Shown: positions 2,936-62,271 of the stretch, piece after piece
How positions within the stretch are numbered: the stretch's first letter is position 1
How the letters are laid out: each line of letters opens with the position of its first letter
DNA from: Escherichia coli
Lineage (GTDB): Bacteria; Pseudomonadota; Gammaproteobacteria; Enterobacterales; Enterobacteriaceae
Strand: one strand, 5' to 3'
DNA: 64,000 nt
Assembly (NCBI RefSeq): GCF_013315695.1
Contig: NZ_CP054353.1
The notes under the pieces: generated by a model
Told to the model about the DNA's origin: nothing
Seen by the model: the letters and a program-made list of their open reading frames with translations, nothing else
Database searches by the model: none
Program-made: the position numbers and the translations under genes

Positions 2936-5900
2936 ATGGTTTACTCCTATACCGAGAAAAAACGTATTCGTAAGGATTTTGGTAAACGTCCACAAGTTCT
3001 GGATGTACCTTATCTCCTTTCTATCCAGCTTGACTCGTTTCAGAAATTTATCGAGCAAGATCCTGAAGGGCAGTATGGTCTGGAAGCTGCTTTCCGTTCC
3101 GTATTCCCGATTCAGAGCTACAGTGGTAATTCCGAGCTGCAATACGTCAGCTACCGCCTTGGCGAACCGGTGTTTGACGTCCAGGAATGTCAAATCCGTG
3201 GCGTGACCTATTCCGCACCGCTGCGCGTTAAACTGCGTCTGGTGATCTATGAGCGCGAAGCGCCGGAAGGCACCGTAAAAGACATTAAAGAACAAGAAGT
3301 CTACATGGGCGAAATTCCGCTCATGACAGACAACGGTACCTTTGTTATCAACGGTACTGAGCGTGTTATCGTTTCCCAGCTGCACCGTAGTCCGGGCGTC
3401 TTCTTTGACTCCGACAAAGGTAAAACCCACTCTTCGGGTAAAGTGCTGTATAACGCGCGCATCATCCCTTACCGTGGTTCCTGGCTGGACTTCGAATTCG
3501 ATCCGAAGGACAACCTGTTCGTACGTATCGACCGTCGCCGTAAACTGCCTGCGACCATCATTCTGCGCGCCCTGAACTACACCACAGAGCAGATCCTCGA
3601 CCTGTTCTTTGAAAAAGTTATCTTTGAAATCCGTGATAACAAGCTGCAGATGGAACTGGTGCCGGAACGCCTGCGTGGTGAAACCGCATCTTTTGACATC
3701 GAAGCTAACGGTAAAGTGTACGTAGAAAAAGGCCGCCGTATCACTGCGCGCCACATTCGCCAGCTGGAAAAAGACGACGTCAAACTGATCGAAGTCCCGG
3801 TTGAGTACATCGCAGGTAAAGTGGTTGCTAAAGACTATATTGATGAGTCTACCGGCGAGCTGATCTGTGCTGCGAACATGGAGCTGAGCCTGGATCTGCT
3901 GGCTAAGCTGAGCCAGTCTGGTCACAAGCGTATCGAAACGCTGTTCACCAACGATCTGGATCACGGCCCATATATCTCTGAAACCTTACGTGTCGACCCA
4001 ACTAACGACCGTCTGAGCGCACTGGTAGAAATCTACCGCATGATGCGCCCTGGCGAGCCGCCGACTCGTGAAGCAGCTGAAAGCCTGTTCGAGAACCTGT
4101 TCTTCTCCGAAGACCGCTATGACCTGTCTGCGGTTGGTCGTATGAAGTTCAACCGTTCTCTGCTGCGCGAAGAAATCGAAGGTTCCGGTATCCTGAGCAA
4201 AGACGACATCATTGATGTTATGAAAAAGCTCATCGATATCCGTAACGGTAAAGGCGAAGTCGATGATATCGACCACCTCGGCAACCGTCGTATCCGTTCC
4301 GTTGGCGAAATGGCGGAAAACCAGTTCCGCGTTGGCCTGGTACGTGTAGAGCGTGCGGTGAAAGAGCGTTTGTCTCTGGGCGATCTGGATACCCTGATGC
4401 CTCAGGATATGATCAACGCCAAGCCGATTTCCGCAGCAGTGAAAGAGTTCTTCGGTTCCAGCCAGCTGTCTCAGTTTATGGACCAGAACAACCCGCTGTC
4501 TGAGATTACGCACAAACGTCGTATCTCCGCACTCGGCCCAGGTGGTCTGACCCGTGAACGTGCAGGCTTCGAAGTTCGAGACGTACACCCGACTCACTAC
4601 GGTCGCGTATGTCCAATCGAAACCCCTGAAGGTCCGAACATCGGTCTGATCAACTCTTTGTCCGTGTACGCACAGACTAACGAATACGGCTTCCTTGAGA
4701 CTCCGTATCGTAAAGTGACCGACGGTGTTGTAACTGACGAAATTCACTACCTGTCTGCTATCGAAGAAGGCAACTACGTTATCGCCCAGGCGAACTCCAA
4801 CCTGGATGAAGAAGGCCACTTCGTAGAAGACCTGGTAACCTGCCGTAGCAAAGGCGAATCCAGCTTGTTCAGCCGCGACCAGGTTGACTACATGGACGTA
4901 TCCACCCAGCAGGTGGTATCCGTCGGTGCGTCCCTGATCCCGTTCCTGGAACACGATGACGCCAACCGTGCATTGATGGGTGCGAACATGCAACGTCAGG
5001 CCGTTCCGACTCTGCGCGCTGATAAGCCGCTGGTTGGTACGGGTATGGAACGTGCTGTTGCCGTTGACTCCGGTGTAACTGCGGTAGCTAAACGTGGTGG
5101 TGTCGTTCAGTACGTGGATGCTTCCCGTATCGTTATCAAAGTTAACGAAGACGAGATGTATCCGGGTGAAGCAGGTATCGACATCTACAACCTGACCAAA
5201 TACACCCGTTCTAACCAGAACACTTGTATCAACCAGATGCCGTGTGTGTCTCTGGGGGAACCGGTTGAACGTGGCGACGTGCTGGCAGACGGTCCGTCCA
5301 CCGACCTCGGTGAACTGGCACTTGGTCAGAACATGCGCGTAGCGTTCATGCCGTGGAATGGTTACAACTTCGAAGACTCCATCCTCGTATCCGAGCGTGT
5401 TGTTCAGGAAGACCGTTTCACCACCATCCACATTCAGGAACTGGCGTGTGTGTCCCGTGACACCAAGCTGGGGCCAGAAGAGATCACCGCTGACATCCCG
5501 AACGTGGGTGAAGCTGCGCTCTCCAAACTGGATGAATCCGGTATCGTTTACATTGGTGCGGAAGTGACCGGTGGCGACATTCTGGTTGGTAAGGTAACGC
5601 CGAAAGGTGAAACTCAGCTGACCCCAGAAGAAAAACTGCTGCGTGCGATCTTCGGTGAGAAAGCGTCTGACGTTAAAGACTCTTCTCTGCGCGTACCAAA
5701 CGGTGTATCCGGTACGGTTATCGACGTTCAGGTCTTTACTCGCGATGGCGTAGAAAAAGACAAACGTGCGCTGGAAATTGAAGAAATGCAGCTCAAACAG
5801 GCGAAGAAAGACCTGTCTGAAGAACTGCAGATCCTCGAAGCGGGTCTGTTCAGCCGTATCCGTGCTGTGCTGGTAGCCGGTGGCGTTGAAGCTGAGAAGC

Positions 5901-30525: not shown

Positions 30526-30601
30526 GTCCCCTTCGTCTAGAGGCCCAGGACACCGCCCTTTCACGGCGGTAACAGGGGTTCGAATCCCCTAGGGGACGCC
30601 A
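30526..30601 (+). tRNA. gltV: tRNA-Glu (UUC) in 16S-23S spacer
   Basis: GTCCCCTTCGTCTAGAGGCCCAGGACACCGCCCTTTCACGGCGGTAACAGGGGTTCGAATCCCCTAGGGGACGCCA, 76 nt, anticodon loop CTTTCAC. Confidence 0.96.
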
Positions 30602-35833: not shown

Positions 35834-37435
35834 ATGACTGAACAGGCAACAACAACCGATGAACTGGCTTTCATAAGGCCGTATGGCGAGCAGGAGAAGC
35901 AAATTCTTACTGCCGAAGCGGTAGAATTTCTGACTGAGCTGGTGACGCATTTTACGCCACAACGCAATAAACTTCTGGCAGCGCGCATTCAGCAGCAGCA
36001 GGATATCGATAACGGAACGTTGCCTGATTTTATTTCGGAAACAGCTTCCATTCGTGATGCTGACTGGAAAATTCGTGGTATTCCCGCGGACTTACAAGAT
36101 CGTCGAGTCGAGATAACTGGCCCGGTTGAGCGCAAGATGGTGATCAACGCGCTCAACGCCAATGTGAAAGTCTTTATGGCCGATTTCGAAGATTCACTGG
36201 CCCCGGACTGGAACAAAGTGATCGACGGGCAAATTAACCTGCGCGATGCGGTTAACGGCACCATCAGCTATACCAATGAAGCAGGCAAAATTTATCAGCT
36301 CAAGCCCAATCCAGCGGTGTTGATTTGTCGGGTTCGCGGTCTGCACTTGCCGGAAAAACATGTCACCTGGCGCGGCGAAGCAATTCCTGGCAGCCTGTTT
36401 GATTTTGCGCTCTATTTCTTCCACAACTACCAGGCTCTGTTAGCAAAAGGCAGCGGTCCCTATTTCTATCTGCCGAAAACCCAGTCCTGGCAGGAAGCGG
36501 CCTGGTGGAGCGAAGTCTTCAGCTATGCAGAAGATCGCTTTAATCTGCCGCGCGGCACCATCAAGGCGACGTTGCTGATTGAAACGCTGCCCGCCGTGTT
36601 CCAGATGGACGAAATCCTTCACGCGCTGCGTGACCATATTGTTGGTCTGAACTGCGGTCGTTGGGATTACATCTTCAGTTATATCAAAACGTTGAAAAAC
36701 TATCCCGATCGCGTCCTGCCAGATAGACAGGCAGTGACGATGGATAAACCCTTCCTGAATGCTTACTCACGCCTGTTGATTAAAACCTGCCATAAACGCG
36801 GCGCATTTGCGATGGGCGGCATGGCGGCGTTTATTCCGAGCAAAGATGAAGAGCGCAATAACCAGGTGCTCAACAAAGTAAAAGCGGATAAATCGCTGGA
36901 AGCCAATAACGGTCACGATGGCACATGGATCGCTCACCCAGGTCTTGCGGATACGGCAATGGCGGTATTCAACGACATTCTCGGCTCCCGTAAAAATCAG
37001 CTTGAAGTGATGCGCGAACAAGACGCGCCGATTACTGCCGATCAGCTGCTGGCACCTTGTGATGGTGAACGCACCGAAGAAGGTATGCGCGCCAACATTC
37101 GCGTGGCTGTGCAGTACATCGAAGCATGGATCTCCGGCAACGGCTGCGTGCCGATTTATGGCCTGATGGAAGATGCGGCGACGGCTGAAATTTCCCGTAC
37201 CTCAATCTGGCAGTGGATCCATCATCAAAAAACGTTGAGCAATGGCAAACCGGTGACCAAAGCCTTGTTCCGCCAGATGCTGGGCGAAGAGATGAAAGTC
37301 ATTGCCAGCGAACTGGGCGAAGAACGTTTCTCCCAGGGGCGTTTTGACGATGCCGCACGTTTGATGGAACAGATCACCACTTCCGATGAGTTAATTGATT
37401 TCCTGACCCTGCCAGGCTACCGCCTGTTAGCGTAA
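35834..37435 (+). CDS. aceB: Malate synthase A
   Basis: 533 aa from ATG 35834 ([33 protein letters not shown]); track ORF starts 6 codons upstream. Confidence 0.96.
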
Positions 37436-51872: not shown

Positions 51873-51937
51873 GATTTGTCACCTTTTAAGTGTCGTCATC
51901 CCTGCCTGTTAAAGCATATGTACACAGGCGCTATTAT

Positions 51938-52432
51938 TTAATTTGCGATTAACTGTTCGTTTATTTTGTCGATAATATTGATTGAGGGATCTGACGCTAC
52001 GACGCGTAAATCCAGTATGACGCCAAGATTATTTAACTCATGAAATGCGTTAATATCATCGTCATCTAATGAAACTGCTTTGGTTAACTGTTTCTTACCA
52101 GGACGCCAGGCCATACCGCCAATATTCAGGGTACCTATTTTTACCCCCTGGCGAACCATTGCTAAGGCATCTTGTGGGCGAGTGAAAAGATAAAAAACGG
52201 TTTCGTCCTGATATTGCGGGTTGTGATAAACCGCGACGGCTTTTTCAATATTGACCACGTTAACCTTCATTCCCGGTGGCGCAGCCTGACGCAATAATGT
52301 CCGGCGAACTTCATCGTTATAAACTTCGTCATTGCAGATAATAATGCGTTGGGCGTTAGCCACTTTAGACCAGACGGTAGTGACCTGGCCGTGGATCAGG
52401 CGGTCATCAATGCGGGCGAGCGTAATGTTCAT
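51938..52432 (-). CDS. sorB: PTS sorbose EIIB component
   Basis: 164 aa MNITLARIDDRLIHGQVTTVWSK, EIIB-Man phosphohistidine motif. Confidence 0.82.
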   Translation of the reverse strand: MNITLARIDDRLIHGQVTTVWSKVANAQRIIICNDEVYNDEVRRTLLRQAAPPGMKVNVVNIEKAVAVYHNPQYQDETVFYLFTRPQDALAMVRQGVKIGTLNIGGMAWRPGKKQLTKAVSLDDDDINAFHELNNLGVILDLRVVASDPSINIIDKINEQLIAN

Positions 52433-52839
52433 CAGAAATCCTCCTCCGCTGTTGCCACCTGTCTCCAGACGACGCAGATTTGCTTTGCGATTTGCGTCAG
52501 GTGTTCACACAGTTCATCAATATTCATGCTGTCCTGGTTATCAACCAGTTCGAGCGCCAGCGGCAGAGAAAGGCCGCTGATTACCCGCAGACGAGGATTG
52601 CGCATCGCAAGCATCGCTGCCGCATTCCACGGGCTGCCGCACTGTAAATCCACGGCAATCAGCCACTCATCTTGATTGTGAATGCTTGCTAACTTTTCCA
52701 GCTTTGCTACGATGTCTCCGGCGTTCTCGCCGGGCACAAATTCAACGGCCTCGACCCTGGCATCGCCGTACACCATCTGAACCGATTCCAGCATGGCGCA
52801 AGCTAATTTGCCATGGGCGCAAAAAATGGCATTGACCAT
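52432..52839 (-). CDS. sorF: PTS sorbose EIIA component
   Basis: 135 aa MVNAIFCAHGKLACAMLESVQMVYGD, EIIA-Man with conserved His near N-terminus. Confidence 0.82.
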   Translation of the reverse strand: MVNAIFCAHGKLACAMLESVQMVYGDARVEAVEFVPGENAGDIVAKLEKLASIHNQDEWLIAVDLQCGSPWNAAAMLAMRNPRLRVISGLSLPLALELVDNQDSMNIDELCEHLTQIAKQICVVWRQVATAEEDF

Positions 52840-52848
52840 AAAGCCTCC

Positions 52849-53655
52849 TTAGCCGCGCGTTTTGCCGCCCGCAATGTTAGTGGTTACTCCGGTGATATAG
52901 CTGGCGCGTTCAGACAGCAGATAACAAACAAAATCAGCCACTTCTGCTAATCTTCCGGCGCGCCCAATAGGAATGGCGTTTTTGGTATAGCCTTCACGCA
53001 GCTGCTCGACGGTGATATTGCGCGTCCACGCCAGCGCTTCTTCATATTCCGGCGTGCGCAGTCCTGTTTTTTCCAGAATCCCCGGCGCGATACCGACCAC
53101 ACGGATACCGTGCTTACCCAGTTCTTTCGACCAGGAGCGAGTGAAGCTATTGAGCGCAGCTTTAGTGGCGGCGTAGCAGCTCTGGCCTTCTGAGCCTTCC
53201 AGCCCACTTTCTGAGGAAACATTCACAATCACGCCATCGTGTTGTTTGACCATCTGTCGCGCCACCGCCTGCGACATCAGAAAAACGCCTTTCTGGTTGA
53301 TATTGACCATTTTTTCGAATGCAGCTTCGTTGAGTTCATACTGCCCGGCAGGCGCTTTCTCATCGACCAGCAGACGCGGGAAATTGACCCCGGCGTTATT
53401 GACCAGACCGTCGATGCGACCAAAACGCTGGATAATTTCTGCTACCGTATGATTTACCTCTTTGGCGCTGGAAATATCGGTCGGCCAAAACTGATAGCCT
53501 TTATGACCTTCATATTGTCCATCGCCACCGTGAATATCGACCATCTGTACATTCGCGCCTTGTGCTAATAATTCATCCACAATCGCCAGACCAATGCCGG
53601 ATGCGCCACCGGTGACAATAATGATTTTATCCTGCAAATTTAACCACGTTTGCAT
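52849..53655 (-). CDS. sorD: Short-chain dehydrogenase (D-glucitol-6-phosphate dehydrogenase type)
   Basis: 268 aa MQTWLNLQDKIIIVTGGASGIGLAIV... (TGxxxGIG), SDR catalytic YAATK. Confidence 0.8.
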   Translation of the reverse strand: MQTWLNLQDKIIIVTGGASGIGLAIVDELLAQGANVQMVDIHGGDGQYEGHKGYQFWPTDISSAKEVNHTVAEIIQRFGRIDGLVNNAGVNFPRLLVDEKAPAGQYELNEAAFEKMVNINQKGVFLMSQAVARQMVKQHDGVIVNVSSESGLEGSEGQSCYAATKAALNSFTRSWSKELGKHGIRVVGIAPGILEKTGLRTPEYEEALAWTRNITVEQLREGYTKNAIPIGRAGRLAEVADFVCYLLSERASYITGVTTNIAGGKTRG

Positions 53656-53724
53656 AACAGACTCCTGATTTTAGATAATAGGGACCCGCCGTAATTTTTA
53701 TTACGGTAAACATCGGGAAGATTT

Positions 53725-54672
53725 TTATTTCAGTAATAGTTCAGCTGTGCTGCTATTCGTTACCAGACAATTAATATATTTTCCACGCAGTGCACCAACA
53801 ATTCCGCTGTATTTTTCTTCACTCATGGCAATGCCAATGGAATATCGTGCCTGCTTTAATTTATTCATTTCGATAGAGAGTGTTTTTTCGCTCATATTCG
53901 TTTCAACCATTGCGCCGTGAATATCAAAAAAGCGCGAGCAAATATCGCCAGCAACCTGGCGGGCATTCAGGTCGTCACTCTCTTCACCACCATAAAACGC
54001 ATGCCAGTTAGCGCCGTCGCGAATGGCCGGTGAGCCAATTCCCACCAGGGCGACATCCAGATTATCCCAGTAGGCAGAGATGGTTTTAAAGTGCTGAGAC
54101 TGCATGATCCCATTACGAATTAATGGGTTATCCAGCAGAGCCGGAAAATCCGCGAGATGCGATTCCCCTTTCAACTTCGCTGCCGCGCTGTAGGTTAATG
54201 TGTTTACATGATAGCGGCTTTCGAGTTTACCGGACGGTCCGCCAATAATTGGTACGCAGATTAACTGCCGCGATTGCCCCGCCTGCGGCAAGTTTTCAAC
54301 CAGTGCGCTCACCGCGCGGCCCCAGGAAAAACCAACAATATCGCCAGGTTCCAGCAAGCGATCCAGCAGTTGCGCGCCGTGTAACCCCATCATCGCCAGT
54401 TGAGTCTCTTCATCCTCATCATTTCCCGACACCACCACAACGTCTTTCAGGCCAAACTTTTGCTTCAGTTGCTGCTCCAGCCAGAGATTTTCGTTGTAGT
54501 CATAGTTGATGGCGATGGTGACAATTCCCTGATCGCGGCCTCGTTTAAGCAAGCGGCTGATGGTGGTGCGGTAAATACCCAGTTCGCGCGCGATTTGCGC
54601 CTGCGTCATATCCTGTTCGTAATAGAGTTGGGCAATCTTCACAATCAAACGGATATCGTCACTGTTTTCCAT
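53725..54672 (-). CDS. sorC: SorC-family transcriptional regulator of the sorbose operon
   Basis: 315 aa from ATG(rc) 54670-54672 (MENSDDIRLIVKIAQLYYEQDMTQAQIARELGIYRTTISRLLKRGRDQGIV), N-terminal HTH plus sugar-phosphate binding domain; first gene of the cluster. Confidence 0.8.
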   Translation of the reverse strand: MENSDDIRLIVKIAQLYYEQDMTQAQIARELGIYRTTISRLLKRGRDQGIVTIAINYDYNENLWLEQQLKQKFGLKDVVVVSGNDEDEETQLAMMGLHGAQLLDRLLEPGDIVGFSWGRAVSALVENLPQAGQSRQLICVPIIGGPSGKLESRYHVNTLTYSAAAKLKGESHLADFPALLDNPLIRNGIMQSQHFKTISAYWDNLDVALVGIGSPAIRDGANWHAFYGGEESDDLNARQVAGDICSRFFDIHGAMVETNMSEKTLSIEMNKLKQARYSIGIAMSEEKYSGIVGALRGKYINCLVTNSSTAELLLK

Positions 54673-55019
54673 TGCCGCCTCCTGGTTCTGCACATTTGTG
54701 CAAATACGCTTTCTCACCGCTTGATCTGATATAACCCCATCATGATGGCCTTTCAAAGCGATTTTTCACTCTTTGCATGGGGGGAAATAGCGCTTTCTCT
54801 TGCACATTTGTTTCTCTGCGTAGTAGTCATCAGCACAGGTGTGCAGCGATTCGTAATATGTTGATTATCCTTATTTTGCCAGGCAAATTTGCATCGTACT
54901 TCCGGAGACACTTTTGTGATAAAAGGCGTGGCAGATCACATTTAATTTCGACGTTGCCGCATAACCCTGTTTTTCCCCGCTAAGAGGTACGGTATATTCC
55001 GCGTTTTACAGGAGAATTT

Positions 55020-55892
55020 ATGCTGCCCGACTCATCAGTCCGTTTAAATAAATACATCAGCGAAAGCGGAATTTGCTCACGCCGCGAAGCGGATCGCTAT
55101 ATCGAGCAAGGCAATGTGTTCCTTAATGGCAAGCGAGCCACCATTGGCGATCAGGTGAAACCCGGCGACGTTGTGAAAGTAAACGGTCAGTTGATTGAGC
55201 CTCGGGAAGCCGAAGATTTGGTACTTATCGCCCTGAACAAGCCCGTCGGTATTGTCAGCACCACCGAAGATGGCGAGCGCGATAACATTGTCGATTTCGT
55301 TAACCACAGCAAACGCGTGTTCCCGATTGGCCGCCTGGATAAAGACTCCCAGGGGCTGATTTTCCTCACCAATCACGGCGATCTGGTGAATAAGATCCTC
55401 CGTGCGGGTAACGATCATGAGAAAGAGTATTTGGTGACGGTTGATAAACCGATTACCGATGAATTTATTCGTGGTATGGGGGCGGGAGTGCCGATCCTCG
55501 GGACGGTGACGAAAAAGTGCAAAGTCAAAAAAGAAGCGCCGTTTGTCTTCCGCATTACCCTGGTGCAGGGGCTGAACCGTCAGATCCGTCGCATGTGCGA
55601 GCACTTTGGTTACGAAGTGAAAAAGCTGGAACGTACGCGCATTATGAACGTCAGTTTAAGCGGCATTCCGCTGGGTGAGTGGCGCGATTTAACCGACGAT
55701 GAGTTAATCGACCTCTTTAAGCTCATCGAAAATTCCTCTTCCGAGGCAAAACCTAAAGCGAAGGCCAAACCGAAAACGGTAGGCATCAAACGTCCAGTCG
55801 TCAAGATGGAAAAAACGGCGGAAAAAGGCGGTCGCCCGGCGTCCAACGGTAAGCGTTTTACCTCGCCGGGGCGAAAAAAGAAGGGACGTTAA
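55020..55892 (+). CDS. rluF: 23S rRNA pseudouridine synthase RluF
   Basis: 290 aa; S4 domain N-terminus and pseudouridine synthase motif [21 protein letters not shown]; Lys-rich tail. Confidence 0.94.
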
Positions 55893-56165
55893 TCAGCGCC
55901 TGCCGCGCGTCGACGTATTTGCTGACCAGCTAAATGACGCCTCAGGATCCGGTTTATAAGCCTGCTTTTTCTTCAATTGGCGGGCTTTTTTCGCTTCAGC
56001 CTCACGCTCGACCATTAATTTATCGATGTACTCTTTCTTAATGCTGTTGGTTTCGGAGTTGGTCAGTACGCGACCATGCGCAATCCGCGCCCGATCCAGC
56101 AATGTTTTAAGTTCACGCTGCTCGCGTTCAGTCATCTCTTTTTGGGTAATACGGGGGAGTGCCAT
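55893..56165 (-). CDS. yjbD: DUF3811 family protein YjbD
   Basis: 90 aa MALPRITQKEMTEREQRELKTLLDRARIAHGRVLTNSETNSIKKEYIDKLMVEREAEAKKARQLKKK. Confidence 0.85.
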   Translation of the reverse strand: MALPRITQKEMTEREQRELKTLLDRARIAHGRVLTNSETNSIKKEYIDKLMVEREAEAKKARQLKKKQAYKPDPEASFSWSANTSTRGRR

Positions 56166-56378
56166 GATGGTGCCCTCAGTGAGCCAGAGAGTTCAGTGTA
56201 CGGGAATTCGTTTGCGAGCAGAACTGATAATATTCCTTTGTTCCCTTCTTAAATATCTATCTTTCTTGATAATTGACGATAAATACAGATAAAAATTTAG
56301 CAAAAAGTTTTCCCCCTACAAACAACAGTAATTCATTAACTCTTTATTTTTCATTTGGTTAATGGTTTTTCTCAATTC

Positions 56379-56394
56379 TGGCACGCTTCTCGCA
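56379..56394 (+). promoter_or_regulatory. Putative sigma54 (-24/-12) promoter upstream of the SPFH gene
   Basis: TGGCACGCTTCTCGCA: matches TGGCACG-N4-TTGCW with one mismatch (C for T at -14); GG and GC separated by 10 nt; about 300 nt upstream of the SPFH start. Confidence 0.45.
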
Positions 56395-56693
56395 ATAACA
56401 CTTTTGCGTTGATACTGAATTTCAAAGGGGATTAAACCCCGTCGGCACACCAGGAACGGCCAGGCTGTTTTCCGGGCGTGTTCCGTCAGCCTTTGACGCT
56501 AATTACGGGTTCGATTCCCGAATTCATTCCTGAAATGAATACTGGTTGTAACTTATTAAATAAAAAATGGGGGATTGCGCAGTCAGCGATCCCCGATAAC
56601 GTCGCCGATAAAGACGCCGGGATACAGGCAAAAGGGAATTCCCCTGTCTCTTCGTGTCTGCTTCCGCGACGGCTGTTAAGCAAGGAATAGATA

Positions 56694-57821
56694 ATGATTA
56701 AGAAAATAAGCGTAAGAAAAGATCAGCTGGCATTACTCTCCAGAAATGGCGATTACTACAAAGTGCTGCATGCAGGCGAGCATCTTTTACCCTGGTTAAA
56801 TACGCCAGAAGTCTTGCTGATTACGCTCGATGGCAGCGAAGTTCCCGACGTGCTGGCGGATTATTTGCGCCGCTTTCAGCCTGATTGGGTGGAAAGATAT
56901 TGCGTGGTGGCCGACTTGTCGGAGACTGAAGCCGGGGCGTTGTATATGGACGGTATTTTGCTGGAGATCCTGCCGCCATCAACGCGTCGTTTGTACTGGC
57001 GTGTAGAGGATGATTTGACGCTGGTGCGGATGAATACGCAGCAAGTCCAGGTTCAAACGGAGGTGATGAATGCGGTATTGCAGCCACGGCGCAAAGGGAC
57101 TGTTAAAGGCCGCGATGCGATACTGACGGTGCAGGTTCCGGCCTGGCACGTAGGTGTACTGAAAATCGATGGTGAAACGCAGGCGCTGTTACCGCCGGGG
57201 CTGACTGCGTACTGGAAAATTAACCATCTGGTTGAAGCTGAAGTGGTTGACACCCGCTTGCAGGTACTGGAAGTCAGTGGGCAAGAAATCTTAACGAAAG
57301 ATAAGGTCAATCTGCGGATTAATCTCGCCGCTAACTAGCGCTACAGCGACGTGTTATTGGCATTTAGTCAGTTAACGAAGCCGATTGATCATTTGTATCG
57401 GGAATTGCAATTTGCACTGCGTGAAGCGGTAGGTACGCGTACGCTGGATGAGTTGCTGGAAGATAAACAAGTCATTGATGACGTTGTCAGCGAACAGGTG
57501 AAATCGCGTATGTTGCCATTTGGTATGGAGATTGCTTCATTAGGGGTGAAAGATATCGTCCTGCCTGGCGATATGAAAAATATCCTTGCGCAGCTGGTTG
57601 AGGCGGAGAAATCCGCGCAGGCCAATGTGATTCGTCGACGTGAAGAAACGGCAGCGACGCGTTCGTTACTCAATACCGCTAAAGTCATGGAAAACAACCC
57701 GGTGGCGTTACGCTTAAAAGAACTGGAAACGCTGGAGAGAGTGGCTGAGCGGATCGATAACATCTCTGTATTTGGTGGTCTGGATCAGGTTCTGCACGGG
57801 TTAGTGAATATCAAAGGATGA
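56694..57821 (+). pseudogene. SPFH/band-7 domain protein, interrupted by in-frame TAG at 57339-57341
   Basis: Track ORFs 56694..57338 and 57351..57821 are in the same frame, separated only by the TAG; the joined product (...TKDKVNLRINLAAN*RYSDVLLAFSQ...LLEDKQVIDDVVSEQVKSRMLPFGMEIASLGVKDIVLPGDMKNILAQLVEAEKSAQANVIRRREE) has a stomatin/prohibitin-type SPFH domain spanning the stop. Confidence 0.7.
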
Positions 57822-57933
57822 GTCAAATGCCATTAAATGGAGTCAGTGCTGCGATGCGCGAACGGGTATCGCAGCAGTTAAAAGAAATAGAACGTCGCTA
57901 TGGCGTGAAAGTGCTGTACGCCTGCGAATCAGG

Positions 57934-57945
57934 CAGCCGCGGCTG
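57934..57945. repeat. IS4 target-site duplication, left copy
   Basis: CAGCCGCGGCTG immediately 5' of the IS4 terminus TAATGCC. Confidence 0.85.
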
Positions 57946-59371
57946 TAATGCCAGTCAGTTAAGCAACTGACTGGCTCTTTTTCGGGGCTGTGGGGTATTT
58001 CCAGGGCCTCTCCTTTACCACTCTCGGGAAGGCCCTTTCCCTTCTTGTCGGTAATTTCACAAGTTGTCCCATACTTGCAAGATCGCGCATCAGCTCCGGT
58101 ATACGTCCCGGTGAAGCGCCCTGCAATGTCATCAGCATTCTCATCACCATTCCGCATGATTCTGAGAAACTCAGTTGATTCGGCCAGTAACCTTTCAGAT
58201 GTTCCGCCATTTTAATCATCTGATATCTCACCAGATTATAAGCCAGTAAGACACCCCACAGCTCTTGCTCCACAAGCTCCGGTTTTTTACTTCTCAGCGT
58301 CAGCCTGCTCAGTTGCATCGTCTGTTTTATCTCCCTGTATCCCAGTTCGATTTCCCAGCGATGACTGTACAGATCCGCCATTTCTCCTCCGGGGAAGCGC
58401 ATGGCGTCCGTCATCGACGTCAGCAGATGGCAGACTTTTCCTTTGCGCGTCACGGTCAGCAGGCGGGCTGTCACTTCATTTCCCAGTCCCGGCCACTTTT
58501 TTCGTGCCTGCGGGCTGGTTTTCAGCTTCACCAGATGATCGCCTTTACCCAGTTTTCTGATCTCTTCATATTGCGCTCCCTTTCTGAGAGGTATCATCCA
58601 GTGGCGGTGTTCTCCCGCCAGGCTCCAGGCATTTAACAGTCCCAGTGAGTAATAACCTTTATCCATTAACGTCAGAGTGTTATCGCCGGTTTGTTCTATA
58701 AGTTGCTCAGCAAGCTCATTTTCGCTGTTCTTCATCGTGCCGAAGGCTGCAGCCGTCAGCAGATGGCTGGTCAGTTCCATCTGGCAGACCATTTTGACCT
58801 GCGGGTAGAGCGCCGGGTTCCCGGCATGTGTCTGGCGGGGGAAGGCTGCATCGTTCTCTGGTGTATCCGGTGTGCGCCAGAACACACCATCGATGGCCAG
58901 CAGGGTCAGGCCGCACCAGTGCGGATGCGGCGTGGCGTTATGCCAGAGCTGCGCTGTTTTCGTGAACACGCGGCGGACAGCCTCACTTCCCAGGCGCTGG
59001 CGGGCCTGAATAACGGCACTGGGGGCAACGAAGGGGCGATTGCCCGGCAGCATGATGTCCAGGCGATTCACAATCTGGTGAAGAGGTTCTTTACGCTCAA
59101 GCGCCATGCCAACAATACACCAGACCATCATTTCGAGGGGAAGACGGCGCTTGCGTAGCGTTACAGTACCTGATTCGGCAAGGCAACGAGAGATGAGTTC
59201 GGGGTCGAGGTAATCCCCCAGAGAAGTCAGTGGGTTACGCAGAGAATCGTAACGGGATACCAGATCAAGAGCCTGTCCAATGTGCATAAAAAAATCCGGA
59301 AACAAGTGAGCGTTTCCGGATTCTTACACAGCCACTGGATCGGTCAACTGATCCTTAACTGATCGGCATTA
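57946..59371 (-). mobile_element. IS4 insertion sequence (complete, 1426 bp)
   Basis: Terminal inverted repeats TAATGCCAGTCAGTTAAG... and ...CTTAACTGATCGGCATTA; single 442 aa DDE transposase; flanked by a 12 bp direct repeat. Confidence 0.92.
57959..59287 (-). CDS. insG: IS4 transposase
   Basis: 442 aa [63 protein letters not shown]... (IS4 family DDE transposase). Confidence 0.92.
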
Positions 59372-59383
59372 CAGCCGCGGCTG
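59372..59383. repeat. IS4 target-site duplication, right copy
   Basis: CAGCCGCGGCTG immediately 3' of the IS4 terminus. Confidence 0.85.
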
Positions 59384-60170
59384 GGGATTTGCCTCGCCCG
59401 ATAGCGACTACGATGTACGGTTTTTGTATGTCCATCCGCTGGAATGGTATCTGCGTGTAGAGTCACCGCGCGATGTTATCGAGCTGCCCATCGACGACGA
59501 ATTAGATGTTTCCGGTTGGGAGTGGCGTAAGGCGCTGGGATTATTGAAAGGCGCGAATCCGACGCTGATAGAATGGCTGGATTCTCCGGTGGTCTATCAA
59601 CAAGATGAAGAAACGATAACGGCGCTTAAGGCAATGGTCCCAATGTGGTTTTCTTCGTTGCGTGCACGCTGGCATTACTATTCGATGGCGCAGAAAAACT
59701 TCCGCGGCTATTTGCAGGGCGATGAAGTTCGACTGAAAAAATACTTTTACGTGCTGCGCCCGCTGCTGGCCGTGCGCTGGGTCGAAGCGGGTAAAGGCGT
59801 GCCGCCAATGCGCTTTGCTGAGTTACTGGCAGGAAGCGAGCTTGATGCGCCGTTACGCGAAGAGATTGACGAACTGCTGGAGCGTAAACAGCGAGCGGGG
59901 GAGGCGGAATATGGTCCGCGCCGTCCTTTGTTACATGCGTTTATTCGCGCGGAGCTGGCGCGTGGGGAAATTCCACCGATTTTACCGGACAGTCGAGATG
60001 GAGATGTTCGGGAGCTAGATAATTTGCTGTATCAAACGGTAATGCGCCGGGCATAAAGCCCGGCGTGATTTATTGCTGGTATTGCCAACTGCTGACTAAA
60101 GCGTACAAGTGATTTGGTGATGCTGCCAACTTACTGATTTAGTGTATGATGGTGTTTTTGAGGTGCTCCA

Positions 60171-60446
60171 GTGGCTTCTGTTTCTATCAGCTGTCCCTCC
60201 TGTTCAGCTACTGACGGGGTGGTGCGTAACGGCAAAAGCACCGCCGGACATCAGCGCTATCTCTGCTCTCACTGCCGTAAAACATGGCAACTGCAGTTCA
60301 CTTACACCGCTTCTCAACCCGGTACGCACCAGAAAATCATTGATATGGCCATGAATGGCGTTGGATGCCGGGCAACAGCCCGCATTATGGGCGTTGGCCT
60401 CAACACGATTTTACGTCACTTAAAAAACTCAGGCCGCAGTCGGTAA
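60171..60446 (+). CDS. insA: IS1 InsA
   Basis: 91 aa [43 protein letters not shown]... zinc-finger/HTH protein of IS1. Confidence 0.93.
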
Positions 60447-60868
60447 CCTCGCGCATACAGCCGGGCAGTGACGTCATCGTCTGCGCGGAAATGGACGAAC
60501 AGTGGGGCTATGTCGGGGCTAAATCGCGCCAGCGCTGGCTGTTTTACGCGTATGACAGGCTCCGGAAGACGGTTGTTGCGCACGTATTCGGTGAACGCAC
60601 TATGGCGACGCTGGGGCGTCTTATGAGCCTGCTGTCACCCTTTGACGTGGTGATATGGATGACGGATGGCTGGCCGCTGTATGAATCCCGCCTGAAGGGA
60701 AAGCTGCACGTAATCAGCAAGCGATATACGCAGCGAATTGAGCGGCATAACCTGAATCTGAGGCAGCACCTGGCACGGCTGGGACGGAAGTCGCTGTCGT
60801 TCTCAAAATCGGTGGAGCTGCATGACAAAGTCATCGGGCATTATCTGAACATAAAACACTATCAATAA
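60365..60868 (+). CDS. insB: IS1 InsB reading frame (expressed as InsAB' by -1 frameshift)
   Basis: -1 frame relative to insA; ...[78 protein letters not shown] slippery run in the insA/insB overlap. Confidence 0.9.
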
Positions 60869-60921
60869 GTTGGAGTCATTACCAATAGCGTCGTGGGTCG
60901 CTATTCACCTCTACTGATCGT

Positions 60922-62271
60922 TTACTCAAACAAATTAAAATGCAGCTTCTGCACCACCTGCTCGGCATCTTCGCCGGGCACCAGGAAGCACAGGTTATGG
61001 CTGGATGCGCCGTAACAAATCATGCGAATGTTGAACGGTTCCAGTACGCCGAATACCTCTTTGCCAACGCCGCAGGCTTTTGACAGGTCATTGCCAATCA
61101 ACGCGACCAGCGCCAGCCCCTCTTCCACTTCCACCCGGCACAGTGCGGAAAGCTCCATCAGCAGGGATTGCGTCAGCAAGGTATCGCCAGTGGAGGTTGA
61201 ACCGGTGGTATCAAGGGTTAATGCCACGCTCACTTCTGACGTGGTGATTAAGTCTACCGAAATATTATGCCGCGCGAGGATGCCGAAAACTTCCGCGAGG
61301 AAACCGCGAGAATGCAGCATATTCAGGCTGTGCAAAGTGAGCAGGGTCTGATTGCGACGAAGCGCCAGCGCGCGGAACAGCGGCGGATTTTCAGTTTTAT
61401 TGCACACCAGCGTACCACCTGCGCGTGGGTCTTTGCTGGAGCCGACAAAGACCGGGATATCGCTGCGTACTGCGGGTAGCAACGTTGCCGGATGCAGTAC
61501 TTTTGCACCAAAAGTTGCCATCTCTGCCGCTTCGGCAAACGCGATTTCATCAATGCGTTTTGCTGCGGAAACCACGCGTGGATCGGTGGTGTAGATGCCC
61601 GGGACGTCGGTCCAGATATCAACACGAGATGCGTGTAAAGCCTCCGCCAGCAAGGCTGCCGTATAATCGCTGCCTCCACGGCCAAGCGTCGTTGTACGAC
61701 CTTTATTTTCGCTACCGATAAATCCCTGGGTGATCACTAAGCCTTCATTGAGGCGTGGGAGCAGCTGCAGCGCGGTCAGTTCCGCCAGCGCGGCTACATC
61801 TGGCTCTGCACGACCAAATCGGTCGTTGGTACGCATCACTTTACGTACATCAAACCACTGTGCCTGAACATCGCGTTCGCGCAGGATTTCGACAAACAGC
61901 AGGGTCGACATCAGCTCGCCGTGGCTGACCAGTTCATCTGTCAGGGCCGGAGACGTTGCCAGCGCCGCCGCTTCTGCCAGAACAGTAATATTCTCCAGCA
62001 GACGTTCAATCTCTTCACGGATAACGTTCGGGTAACGCAGACGTTCCAGAATGGCAAACTGGATATTGCGGATTGCGTCGAGTTTTTCGAATCGCTCGCC
62101 AGGTTCCAGTCCTTCAGCTAAAGCGACCAGCAGATTAGTGATACCAGCAGAAGCCGAGAGGACAACTAAACGCACGTTGGCATCAGAAAGCACAATATCA
62201 GCGCTGCGGTTCATGGCGTCAAAATCAGCTACGCTGGTACCGCCAAATTTGGAGACAACAATTTCAGACAT
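60922..62271 (-). CDS. lysC: Lysine-sensitive aspartokinase III
   Basis: 449 aa MSEIVVSKFGGTSVADFDAMNRSADIVLSDANVRLVVLSASAGITNLLVALAEG...; C-terminal ACT domains. Confidence 0.96.
   Translation of the reverse strand: MSEIVVSKFGGTSVADFDAMNRSADIVLSDANVRLVVLSASAGITNLLVALAEGLEPGERFEKLDAIRNIQFAILERLRYPNVIREEIERLLENITVLAEAAALATSPALTDELVSHGELMSTLLFVEILRERDVQAQWFDVRKVMRTNDRFGRAEPDVAALAELTALQLLPRLNEGLVITQGFIGSENKGRTTTLGRGGSDYTAALLAEALHASRVDIWTDVPGIYTTDPRVVSAAKRIDEIAFAEAAEMATFGAKVLHPATLLPAVRSDIPVFVGSSKDPRAGGTLVCNKTENPPLFRALALRRNQTLLTLHSLNMLHSRGFLAEVFGILARHNISVDLITTSEVSVALTLDTTGSTSTGDTLLTQSLLMELSALCRVEVEEGLALVALIGNDLSKACGVGKEVFGVLEPFNIRMICYGASSHNLCFLVPGEDAEQVVQKLHFNLFE

Follow-up and report, generated by a model that had tools for sequence, protein, structure and literature searches.

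We studied the sequence ahead of a Band-7/SPFH (slipin) gene in a 64,000-nucleotide (nt) stretch of Escherichia coli DNA (contig NZ_CP054353.1 of assembly GCF_013315695.1), and refer to this whole stretch as the window. Positions 56254-56693 very probably constitute the control region of a reduced Rtc RNA-repair operon of the Band-7 type, together with its 5' RNA, which is about 290 nt long. The RNA leader is homologous to the RNA that precedes the Band-7 gene in rtcR-band7-rtcB-rlaP(-rtcA) operons of other Proteobacteria; in E. coli the cloverleaf has been lost from the RNA, and rtcR and rtcB have been lost from the locus. For the mechanism we tentatively propose, with somewhat less than even confidence, that the RNA might be an RtcR-dependent, damage-induced partner of the Band-7 and RlaP proteins. 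Identity and mechanism, taken together as a single statement, are moderately favoured.

Covariation and fold of the leader RNA

An alignment of 12 Enterobacterales leaders, made with MAFFT from sequence only, gave an RNAalifold consensus of 50 pairs, 37 of which carry compensatory changes. As controls, the 3' partners were slid by 1-3 columns, and 500 shuffles were made. Standard pairs were formed in 94% of the cells as observed and in 44-50% after sliding; the number of pairs changed on both sides was 37 against 9-13, and the covariation score was 0.55 against about 0.1. None of the 500 shuffles reached the observed pairing values. Compared with shuffled sequence, the fold had a z-score of -2.74 on the + strand and -1.67 on the - strand. 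Judging by this covariation, the leader is a genuine structured RNA, with the following elements, all on the + strand.

56406-56499: 5' domain (RNAalifold and pair counts; covariance model R1, described below, aligns here)
56406-56412 with 56493-56499: closing helix P0 (RNAduplex, all 12 genera)
56415-56418 with 56486-56489: closing helix P1, CUGA/UCAG, with a change to CUGG/CCAG (RNAduplex, all 12 genera)
56427-56440: hairpin H1, GGGG-AUUAAA-CCCC, inside the 5' domain
56444-56482: H2, a long stem with a conserved tandem G.U, inside the 5' domain
56506-56520: T-arm-like hairpin CGGG-UUCGAUU-CCCG (compensatory changes CAGG/CCUG and UGGG/CCCA)
56522-56540: post-T-arm hairpin AUUCAUU-CCUGA-AAUGAAU (in a subgroup of genera only)
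56541-56568: A/U-rich linker, at the place of the full cloverleaf of beta-proteobacteria and Pseudomonas (by eye)
56570-56671: 3' domain (helices 4-7 paired at 81-97%, most with double changes)
56570-56578 with 56586-56594: hairpin H4, GGGGAT-N13-ATCCCC (the run of five G's begins at 56569)
56600-56609 with 56662-56671, and 56616-56632 with 56639-56655: long interrupted 3' stem with a conserved GGCAAAA...UUCCCC motif
56683-56688: Shine-Dalgarno sequence AAGGAA, outside the conserved structure
56694-56696: slipin start codon, outside the conserved structure

An earlier note, made from the letters of the window alone, had drawn attention to four strong hairpins in this leader. All four lie where they had been placed to within one base (H1 starts at 56427 and H4 at 56570; the other two are exact), and CGGG-TTCGATT-CCCG, which the note had likened to a tRNA T-stem-loop, has exactly the coordinates given for it and is conserved with compensatory changes. 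Such changes were likewise found for the hairpins in the orthologous leaders, with the hairpin at 56522-56540 confined to a subgroup. The pairing can also be followed within the species: among seven E. coli haplotypes about 30 leader positions differ, P0 and the post-T-arm hairpin are unchanged, and compensatory changes occur from C-G to U-A at 56506/56520 and from A-U to U-G at 56622/56649.

The conserved helices stop 12 nt short of the Shine-Dalgarno sequence, and neither this sequence nor the AUG is ever paired within them. No terminator was predicted in the leader, in which no search for mutually exclusive alternative helices was made. With the Shine-Dalgarno sequence outside the conserved structure and no predicted terminator, the leader is probably not an attenuator. 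As pure speculation, the A/U-rich linker might hold an RNase E site. Open reading frames of 70 and 65 residues run over the leader; we rejected them as coding sequences because indels between genera are not multiples of three and substitutions follow the base pairing. A tRNA-like topology formed jointly by the 5' domain and the T-arm was rejected as well, since P0 closes ahead of the T-arm and leaves it outside the closed domain.

Homology with tRNA-like RNAs of other lineages

To the downstream side of the T-arm, the strand that would be the 3' acceptor strand in a tRNA pairs downstream in E. coli, and not upstream. The resulting post-T-arm hairpin is kept and covaries (UUCAUU/AAUGAA versus UUCACU/AGUGAA) in E. 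coli, Phytobacter, Pluralibacter, Pseudocitrobacter and Superficieibacter. In three other Enterobacterales the same strand pairs with an upstream GCGAA-type segment that is missing in E. coli; a 16-nt segment containing this 5' acceptor strand is missing in E. coli, Phytobacter, Pluralibacter and Pseudocitrobacter. The D-arm motif UAGCUCA...GAGC, found in 23 family members, is also missing from the E. coli leader. The T-loop motif GGTTCGAWTCC occurs in the window in the leader and in a true tRNA-Glu only (0.08 matches expected). ARAGORN, run on the window, reported only tRNA-Glu at 30526 and no tRNA in the leader.

We built a covariance model (R1) over the 5' domain and the first T-arm of 17 non-enterobacterial leaders from Pseudomonas, Burkholderia and other beta-proteobacteria. 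In the 64-kb window R1 has a single match, at 56395-56532 on the + strand, over the full model length, with 19.8 bits and an expectation value (E) of roughly 5e-4, such E-values being rough. It also matches all other Enterobacterales leaders, scoring as high as 44 bits, as well as about 25 loci besides; there was no match in the rtcBA or yjbD-lysC regions of K-12. R1 aligns the T-arm of the leader to the first T-arm of the Pseudomonas and Burkholderia RNAs. The Rfam library offered no believable match over 54000-59000 at E <= 10, where it gave four sub-threshold, unrelated matches (SAM-III at 18 bits, and fragments of RNase P, small nucleolar RNA and long non-coding RNA) and none to its tRNA model. 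A second model of our own (R2), made from the enterobacterial 3' domain, matches Snodgrassella and Gilliamella just upstream of the Band-7 gene (E from 5e-5 to 0.01). With default filters R2 did not reach the high-GC lineages (Pseudomonas, Burkholderia), for which homology of the 3' domain is suggested by motifs seen by eye (AGCAGUACCCGCCGG).

Most loci of Pseudomonas, Burkholderia and other beta-proteobacteria have one or two tRNA-like genes on the same strand, 280-350 nt upstream of the Band-7 gene (by the Rfam tRNA model and ARAGORN). These genes lack a CCA, and the anticodon loop in them is odd or varies, being in some cases a GNRA tetraloop. By reading, the plan of these non-enterobacterial leaders is the sigma-54 promoter, the 5' domain, tRNA-like module 1, a full cloverleaf, a long 3' domain and then the Band-7 gene, where the 5' domain consists of a hairpin followed by a GCCGGUGC ... 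GCAUGCCGC stem. Module 1 is full in Pseudomonas and a mini unit of acceptor stem and T-arm in Burkholderia and Chitinimonas. Enterobacterales have only the mini module, and E. coli only its T-arm, which is, as far as this comparison can tell, the vestige of a tRNA-like module. The large 5' and 3' domains had no Rfam match at the gathering threshold in the 13 loci scanned.

In several Burkholderia loci (L017, L013, L024 and L062, about 4690-4700) the anticodon loop of the cloverleaf is a GNRA tetraloop, GCCGGC-GAAA/GCAA-GCCGGC. Because the tetraloop replaces the anticodon loop, this cloverleaf cannot decode and must be a structural mimic. In other loci (L033, L066, L067, L073 and L081; also L022, L038 and L047) the Band-7 gene is flanked by 4 to 18 ordinary-looking tRNA genes besides the tRNA-like module, the largest array being the 18 genes of Aliikangiella marina (L066).

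A tRNA associated with band 7, named b7a-tRNA, beside Band-7 and RtcB was predicted by Burroughs and Aravind (2016) and, according to a citing 2018 preprint, had not been validated by then. In the searchable literature we found no experimental work on a Band-7-associated tRNA-like RNA. The tRNA-like genes of the other lineages match the predicted b7a-tRNA. The E. coli leader lacks the cloverleaf that defines a b7a-tRNA, and yet it is, by the R1 match, homologous to an RNA that carries one.

Related operons in other genera

The first protein search with the slipin returned Escherichia sequences only. We aligned 40 diverse full-length Band-7 homologues (representatives of clusters at 50% identity) and used them to fetch 80 loci, one genome per species. 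The general order is rtcR, transcribed divergently from the sigma-54 promoter, then the structured RNA and band7-rtcB-rlaP(-rtcA). In Phytobacter and Pseudomonas the divergent upstream gene is assigned to RtcR by the NCBIfam equivalog NF038308, with 832 and 847 bits at a cut-off of 650; downstream are RtcB and a protein of 266-267 residues at the RlaP position, with RtcA in Pseudomonas only. An SPFH gene embedded in the P. aeruginosa rtc locus is also described in a 2026 paper.

In Enterobacter sp. BIGb0383 and Siccibacter a lysine riboswitch lies a few kb downstream of the Band-7 gene. A lysC-sized open reading frame stands between the full operon of Enterobacter sp. BIGb0383 and this riboswitch, so that the operon has the same chromosomal site as the islet in E. 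coli. The islet is accordingly a reduced derivative, from which rtcR and rtcB have been lost.

Sigma-54 promoter and its upstream sites

Three sites, all on the + strand, lie between the upstream gene and the leader.

56379-56394: sigma-54 -24/-12 element TGGCACGCTTCTCGCA, with GG-N10-GC spacing and a predicted +1 near 56405
56254-56295: GATA-repeat upstream site TATC-TATC-N6-GATAA-N5-CGATAA-N5-AGATAAAAA, a putative RtcR binding site
56349-56361: candidate IHF-like site TTTCATTTGGTTA, compared with WATCAANNNNTTR, having two mismatches in E. coli (by eye)

Against the consensus TGGCAC-N5-TTGCW, TGGCACGCTTCTCGCA has a single departure, TCGCA for TTGCA. The promoter core TGGCAC-N5-T(G/C)GCA is unchanged across the 12 Enterobacterales leaders, which agrees with the near-consensus element that the earlier note had read here. 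Within E. coli, the 16-nt core is constant in the seven haplotypes, and six positions within 10 nt of it vary. By a strict regular expression, about 40 of the 80 loci have a sigma-54 element at the equivalent place, at a distance of 300-680 nt upstream of Band-7, and in nearly all of these the match is unique within about 11 kb. In the window the pattern TGGCACN5TBGCW has two matches, where 0.27 would be expected. The other one, TGGCACATGGATCGCT, at 36919-36934 on the + strand, may be due to chance or intragenic.

The pattern TATC-N6-GATAA-N5-GATA has its sole match in the 64-kb window at 56258-56281 (0.02 expected). In 19 loci it has one match apiece, in every case at about 110-150 nt upstream of the sigma-54 element, and where rtcR is present the GATA-repeat site follows directly after the divergent rtcR start codon. 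By eye, ATCAA-N4-TTA or close variants stand at the place equivalent to the IHF-like site in the other compared genera and in the K-12 rtcBA promoter. An upstream enhancer and an intervening IHF-like site, both conserved in position, would fit the layout of a sigma-54 promoter.

RtcR as the candidate activator

Neither the annotation nor the open reading frame list of the islet contains an enhancer-binding protein gene, as the earlier note had stated, and its reading that the promoter depends on an activator acting in trans gains support from the other genera. There, the gene of the probable activator, RtcR, adjoins the same promoter with its upstream site in divergent orientation (Phytobacter, Enterobacter, Pseudomonas and Burkholderia, with adjacency seen at L004, L005 and L011). 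In E. coli the gene upstream of the islet promoter is yjbD, and rtcR is not adjacent; of the 5426 complete E. coli genomes, 5424 have it elsewhere. The RtcR proteins of E. coli and Phytobacter, the latter encoded beside this promoter type, share 63% identity, and the C-terminal segment NDADRLRKYLARFGL, taken to be the recognition helix of the helix-turn-helix, is identical in both. RtcR is thus the best candidate for activation in trans. As reported by Hughes et al. (2020, PMC7790460) and Kotta-Loizou et al. (2022, PMC9650030), damaged tRNA fragments switch RtcR on. The K-12 rtcBA enhancer gives weak, overlapping matches with three mismatches to the islet enhancer pattern; the idea that the two enhancers are the same was dropped, as they share nothing in its support beyond GATA/TATC half-sites.

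The islet and its distribution in E. coli

The islet is placed between yjbD and lysC and contains the leader, the Band-7/slipin gene and the gene of the RlaP nucleotidyltransferase. Its border lies near 56296.

55020-55892, + strand: rluF (open reading frame list and annotation)
55893-56165, - strand: yjbD (open reading frame list and annotation)
56694-57821, + strand: Band-7/SPFH (slipin) gene, a pseudogene in this strain with TAG at 57336-57338
57827-60056, + strand: RlaP (PF10127) nucleotidyltransferase gene (annotation), split by IS4
57959-59305, - strand: IS4 transposase, interrupting the RlaP gene
60922-62271, - strand: lysC (open reading frame list and annotation)

Positions 55800-57400 are matched in 5425 of the 5426 complete E. 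coli genomes, and at least 80% of the region is covered in just 1627. The 411 bases around the leader were found in 1631 of them at 92-100% identity, with no RNA feature annotated over these bases. An intact slipin of 375 residues is common, and the intact RlaP copy of O111 matches PF10127 with E 8.9e-95. In the strain studied here both protein genes are broken, and the system is therefore probably inactive even if the RNA is still made.

K-12 lacks the islet, and its yjbD-lysC spacer has only 252 bp. This spacer (L002 3633-3884) resembles a deletion scar of the islet operon when compared with window positions 56093-56295 and 56602-56617. It retains the region of the GATA-repeat enhancer (92% identity to window 56295, the enhancer pattern having two mismatches), and may retain 16-26 nt of the 3' stem of the leader (CCGATAAAGACGCTGG; E 0.03-0.07, marginal). 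The islet of the present strain is itself decaying, with IS4 (57947-59372) within rlaP and IS1 at 60100-60890. At the place of this IS1, strain 11128 of O111:H- (L003 6366-7292) has a gene of the zeta-toxin family (P-loop kinase-like) on the opposite strand between rlaP and lysC. Farther away, 5' of rluF, window positions 51900-54800 carry genes for a sugar-binding regulator, a short-chain dehydrogenase/reductase (SDR) oxidoreductase and mannose-family phosphotransferase system (PTS) IIA, IIB and IIC; the K-12 counterpart is pepE and yjbB, which makes this a further strain-variable block.

Protein partners

No membrane anchor is obvious in the Band-7 protein. The fold predicted for it, with a predicted local distance difference test score (pLDDT) of 88, comprises an SPFH domain, a long helix and N-terminal beta repeats. 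The model aligns over 400-467 columns with the eukaryotic major vault protein at 12-15% identity, with apparent counterparts in two N-terminal beta-repeat domains, the SPFH shoulder and the long cap-like helix. The same predicted structure aligns with stomatin and with HflK/C cage subunits. The name of RlaP refers to an association with RNA ligases, and according to a 2025 preprint the enzyme extends damaged RNA 3' ends by one or two nucleotides.

Possible mechanism and alternative explanations

We propose that RtcR, encoded elsewhere in nearly all E. coli, would be activated by damaged tRNA fragments, bind the GATA repeats and activate sigma-54 RNA polymerase from about 56405. The leader RNA could then serve as a partner or scaffold of RlaP and of a cage-forming, vault-protein-like Band-7 protein, acting either as a part of the mRNA or once a cut in the A/U-rich linker has released it. 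This pairing might be analogous to that of Y RNA with Ro in rsr-yrlBA-rtcBA operons. The scaffold idea is suggested by a report that YrlA and b7a-tRNA replace one another in Ro and Band-7 operons, by the absence of Shine-Dalgarno sequestration and by the predicted Band-7 fold. In a bolder version, which we consider unlikely on balance, the E. coli leader would be the minimal form of a widespread RNA of 290-690 nt, composed of a 5' four-helix domain, 0-2 tRNA-like modules and a 3' domain, which would assemble with an SPFH cage and RlaP into a damage-induced repair particle switched on in trans by RtcR.

Several considerations weigh against this proposal. The ribonucleoprotein or scaffold role is argued entirely from gene neighbourhood and from analogy with Ro/Y RNA and vault/vault RNA. 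E. coli RtcR may not recognise the islet enhancer, because the rtcBA enhancer matches the islet pattern only weakly, and the promoter could then be orphaned. Without the cloverleaf and the upstream acceptor-like strand, the E. coli RNA could be a decaying relic. An RNA within a 5' untranslated region (UTR) and without its own terminator would fit a cis-acting role equally well. The E-values of the covariance models are rough.

The most serious competitor, though clearly the less probable, is a purely cis-acting 5' UTR element that sets the stability or translation of the band7-rlaP mRNA and has no function as a separate RNA; in variants of it, the leader could be cut by tRNA-damaging ribotoxins and resealed by RtcB, or could form a protein-bound translation gate. 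The position of the RNA between the promoter and the first start codon, the lack of a predicted intrinsic terminator, and the lack in the E. coli form of acceptor stems for release by RNase P or RNase Z would all agree with this, but 12 nt lie between the last of the conserved helices and the Shine-Dalgarno sequence, which, like the AUG, is never part of them. The size of 290-690 nt, the modular make-up and the cloverleafs embedded elsewhere are unusual for a simple attenuator, and the exchange of places between YrlA and b7a-tRNA in Ro and Band-7 operons, as described in the literature, points to an RNA with a protein partner. Alternatively, the leader might be a non-functional relic of the rtcR-band7-rtcB-rlaP operon, with a promoter orphaned in E. 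coli and a conservation that reflects recent descent only. We regard this as rather improbable, despite the loss of rtcR and rtcB from the locus and of the cloverleaf and the 16-nt acceptor segment from the RNA, the stop codon in band-7 and the IS4 in rlaP of this strain, the deletion of almost everything in K-12 and the weak similarity of the canonical rtcBA enhancer. The promoter core, P0 and the post-T-arm hairpin have remained constant in the seven haplotypes amid about 30 variable leader positions, paired sites change in a compensatory way within E. coli, and the protein genes are intact in many strains. The reduced RNA subtype is moreover kept in Phytobacter, Pluralibacter and Pseudocitrobacter, and in Phytobacter, the only one of the three whose neighbouring genes were checked, the operon is complete.

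Two further explanations carry very little weight. A bacterial Y RNA of the YrlA kind comes to mind because Salmonella RNA-repair operons carry YrlA and YrlB with a tRNA-like domain, and the earlier note had suggested a small tRNA-mimicking RNA of the sort that accompanies such operons. The tRNA-mimicking kinship stood, through the R1 match to Band-7-associated RNAs, and the identity with Y RNA did not: no Y RNA match was found in Rfam at E <= 10 over 54000-59000 (provided that the library includes Y RNA models), no Rsr/Ro gene is annotated, and no long terminal stem is formed from the 5' and 3' ends. The covariation, along with the independent match of the covariance model, excludes chance hairpins in AT/GC-mixed intergenic DNA; Y RNA and chance hairpins together are very improbable. 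Refuted, finally, is the suggestion in the same note that a tRNA gene used as the attachment site of the islet left the T-arm as its 3' remnant. A canonical T-loop does lie near a strain-variable islet, but it lies about 210 nt inside the islet rather than at its border near 56296, it covaries within a larger RNA, and its place upstream of Band-7 stays fixed across dozens of genera and many unrelated chromosomal contexts. No integrase gene was seen in the annotation, and direct repeats of the T-arm were not searched for. We retain the 5' RNA of a reduced Band-7-type Rtc operon as the best explanation.

Novelty and significance

Control of Rtc operons by sigma-54 and RtcR and a Band-7-associated tRNA-like RNA are already in the literature. 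What seems new are the large conserved domains that flank the tRNA-like part on its 5' and 3' sides, the reduced enterobacterial and E. coli variant without a cloverleaf, the conserved GATA-repeat enhancer, and the prediction that the E. coli islet, which lacks rtcR, joins the RtcR regulon. Parts of these may stand in Burroughs and Aravind (2016). The tRNA-like RNAs of RNA-repair operons have so far been a prediction only (b7a-tRNA) or of unknown function (YrlA); here the tRNA-like part is embedded in a larger covarying RNA. About 30% of complete E. coli genomes, for example that of O111:H- strain 11128, where the islet is intact and the leader occupies 4924113-4924524 of NC_013364, carry the stripped-down RNA, which offers a tractable natural minimal variant. 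If the prediction is true, RtcR, known so far in E. coli for rtcBA only, would act in trans on a second locus. A possible vault-like analogy comes from the fold predicted for the Band-7 partner, which resembles the major vault protein.

Comparison with known systems

The resemblance to the vault particle is one of analogy: the predicted Band-7 fold aligns with the major vault protein, and a small structured RNA is genetically tied to it. Unlike in the vault, the Band-7 protein is less than half the size of the major vault protein, and a cage and RNA binding would here follow by analogy only.

In E. coli K-12, the rtcBA genes reportedly have a sigma-54 promoter with RtcR as its activator. The islet promoter is like it in having an enhancer, an IHF-like site and TGGCAC-N5-TxGCA, in driving RNA-repair genes and, in the orthologous loci, in being divergent from rtcR. 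It differs in the arrangement of the GATA half-sites and in that rtcR is not adjacent in E. coli, so that activation in trans would be needed. The islet leader is also structured and about 290 nt long, whereas in rtcBA about 30 nt separate the end of the promoter element from the rtcB ATG.

Like YrlA and YrlB of the Salmonella rsr-yrlBA-rtcBA operon (Chen et al. 2014, PMC4201824), the leader is non-coding, has a tRNA-mimicking T-arm, and belongs to an RNA-repair operon of the RtcR/sigma-54 type with a putative scaffold protein adjoining. In contrast to them, its system lacks a Ro protein as well as a terminal stem for Ro binding, and Rfam gave it no Y RNA match; its partner would be the SPFH/Band-7 protein, and it is a 5' leader rather than an intergenic gene.

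The closest relative is the b7a-tRNA. The Enterobacterales leaders differ from it in having no cloverleaf: both the D-arm and the anticodon arm are missing, and no tRNA is reported in them by ARAGORN or by the tRNA model of Rfam. Like the b7a-tRNA, the E. coli leader lies directly upstream, on the same strand, of an SPFH/Band-7 gene in an RtcB/RlaP RNA-repair set, has a canonical T-arm and is homologous to an RNA that carries the cloverleaf.

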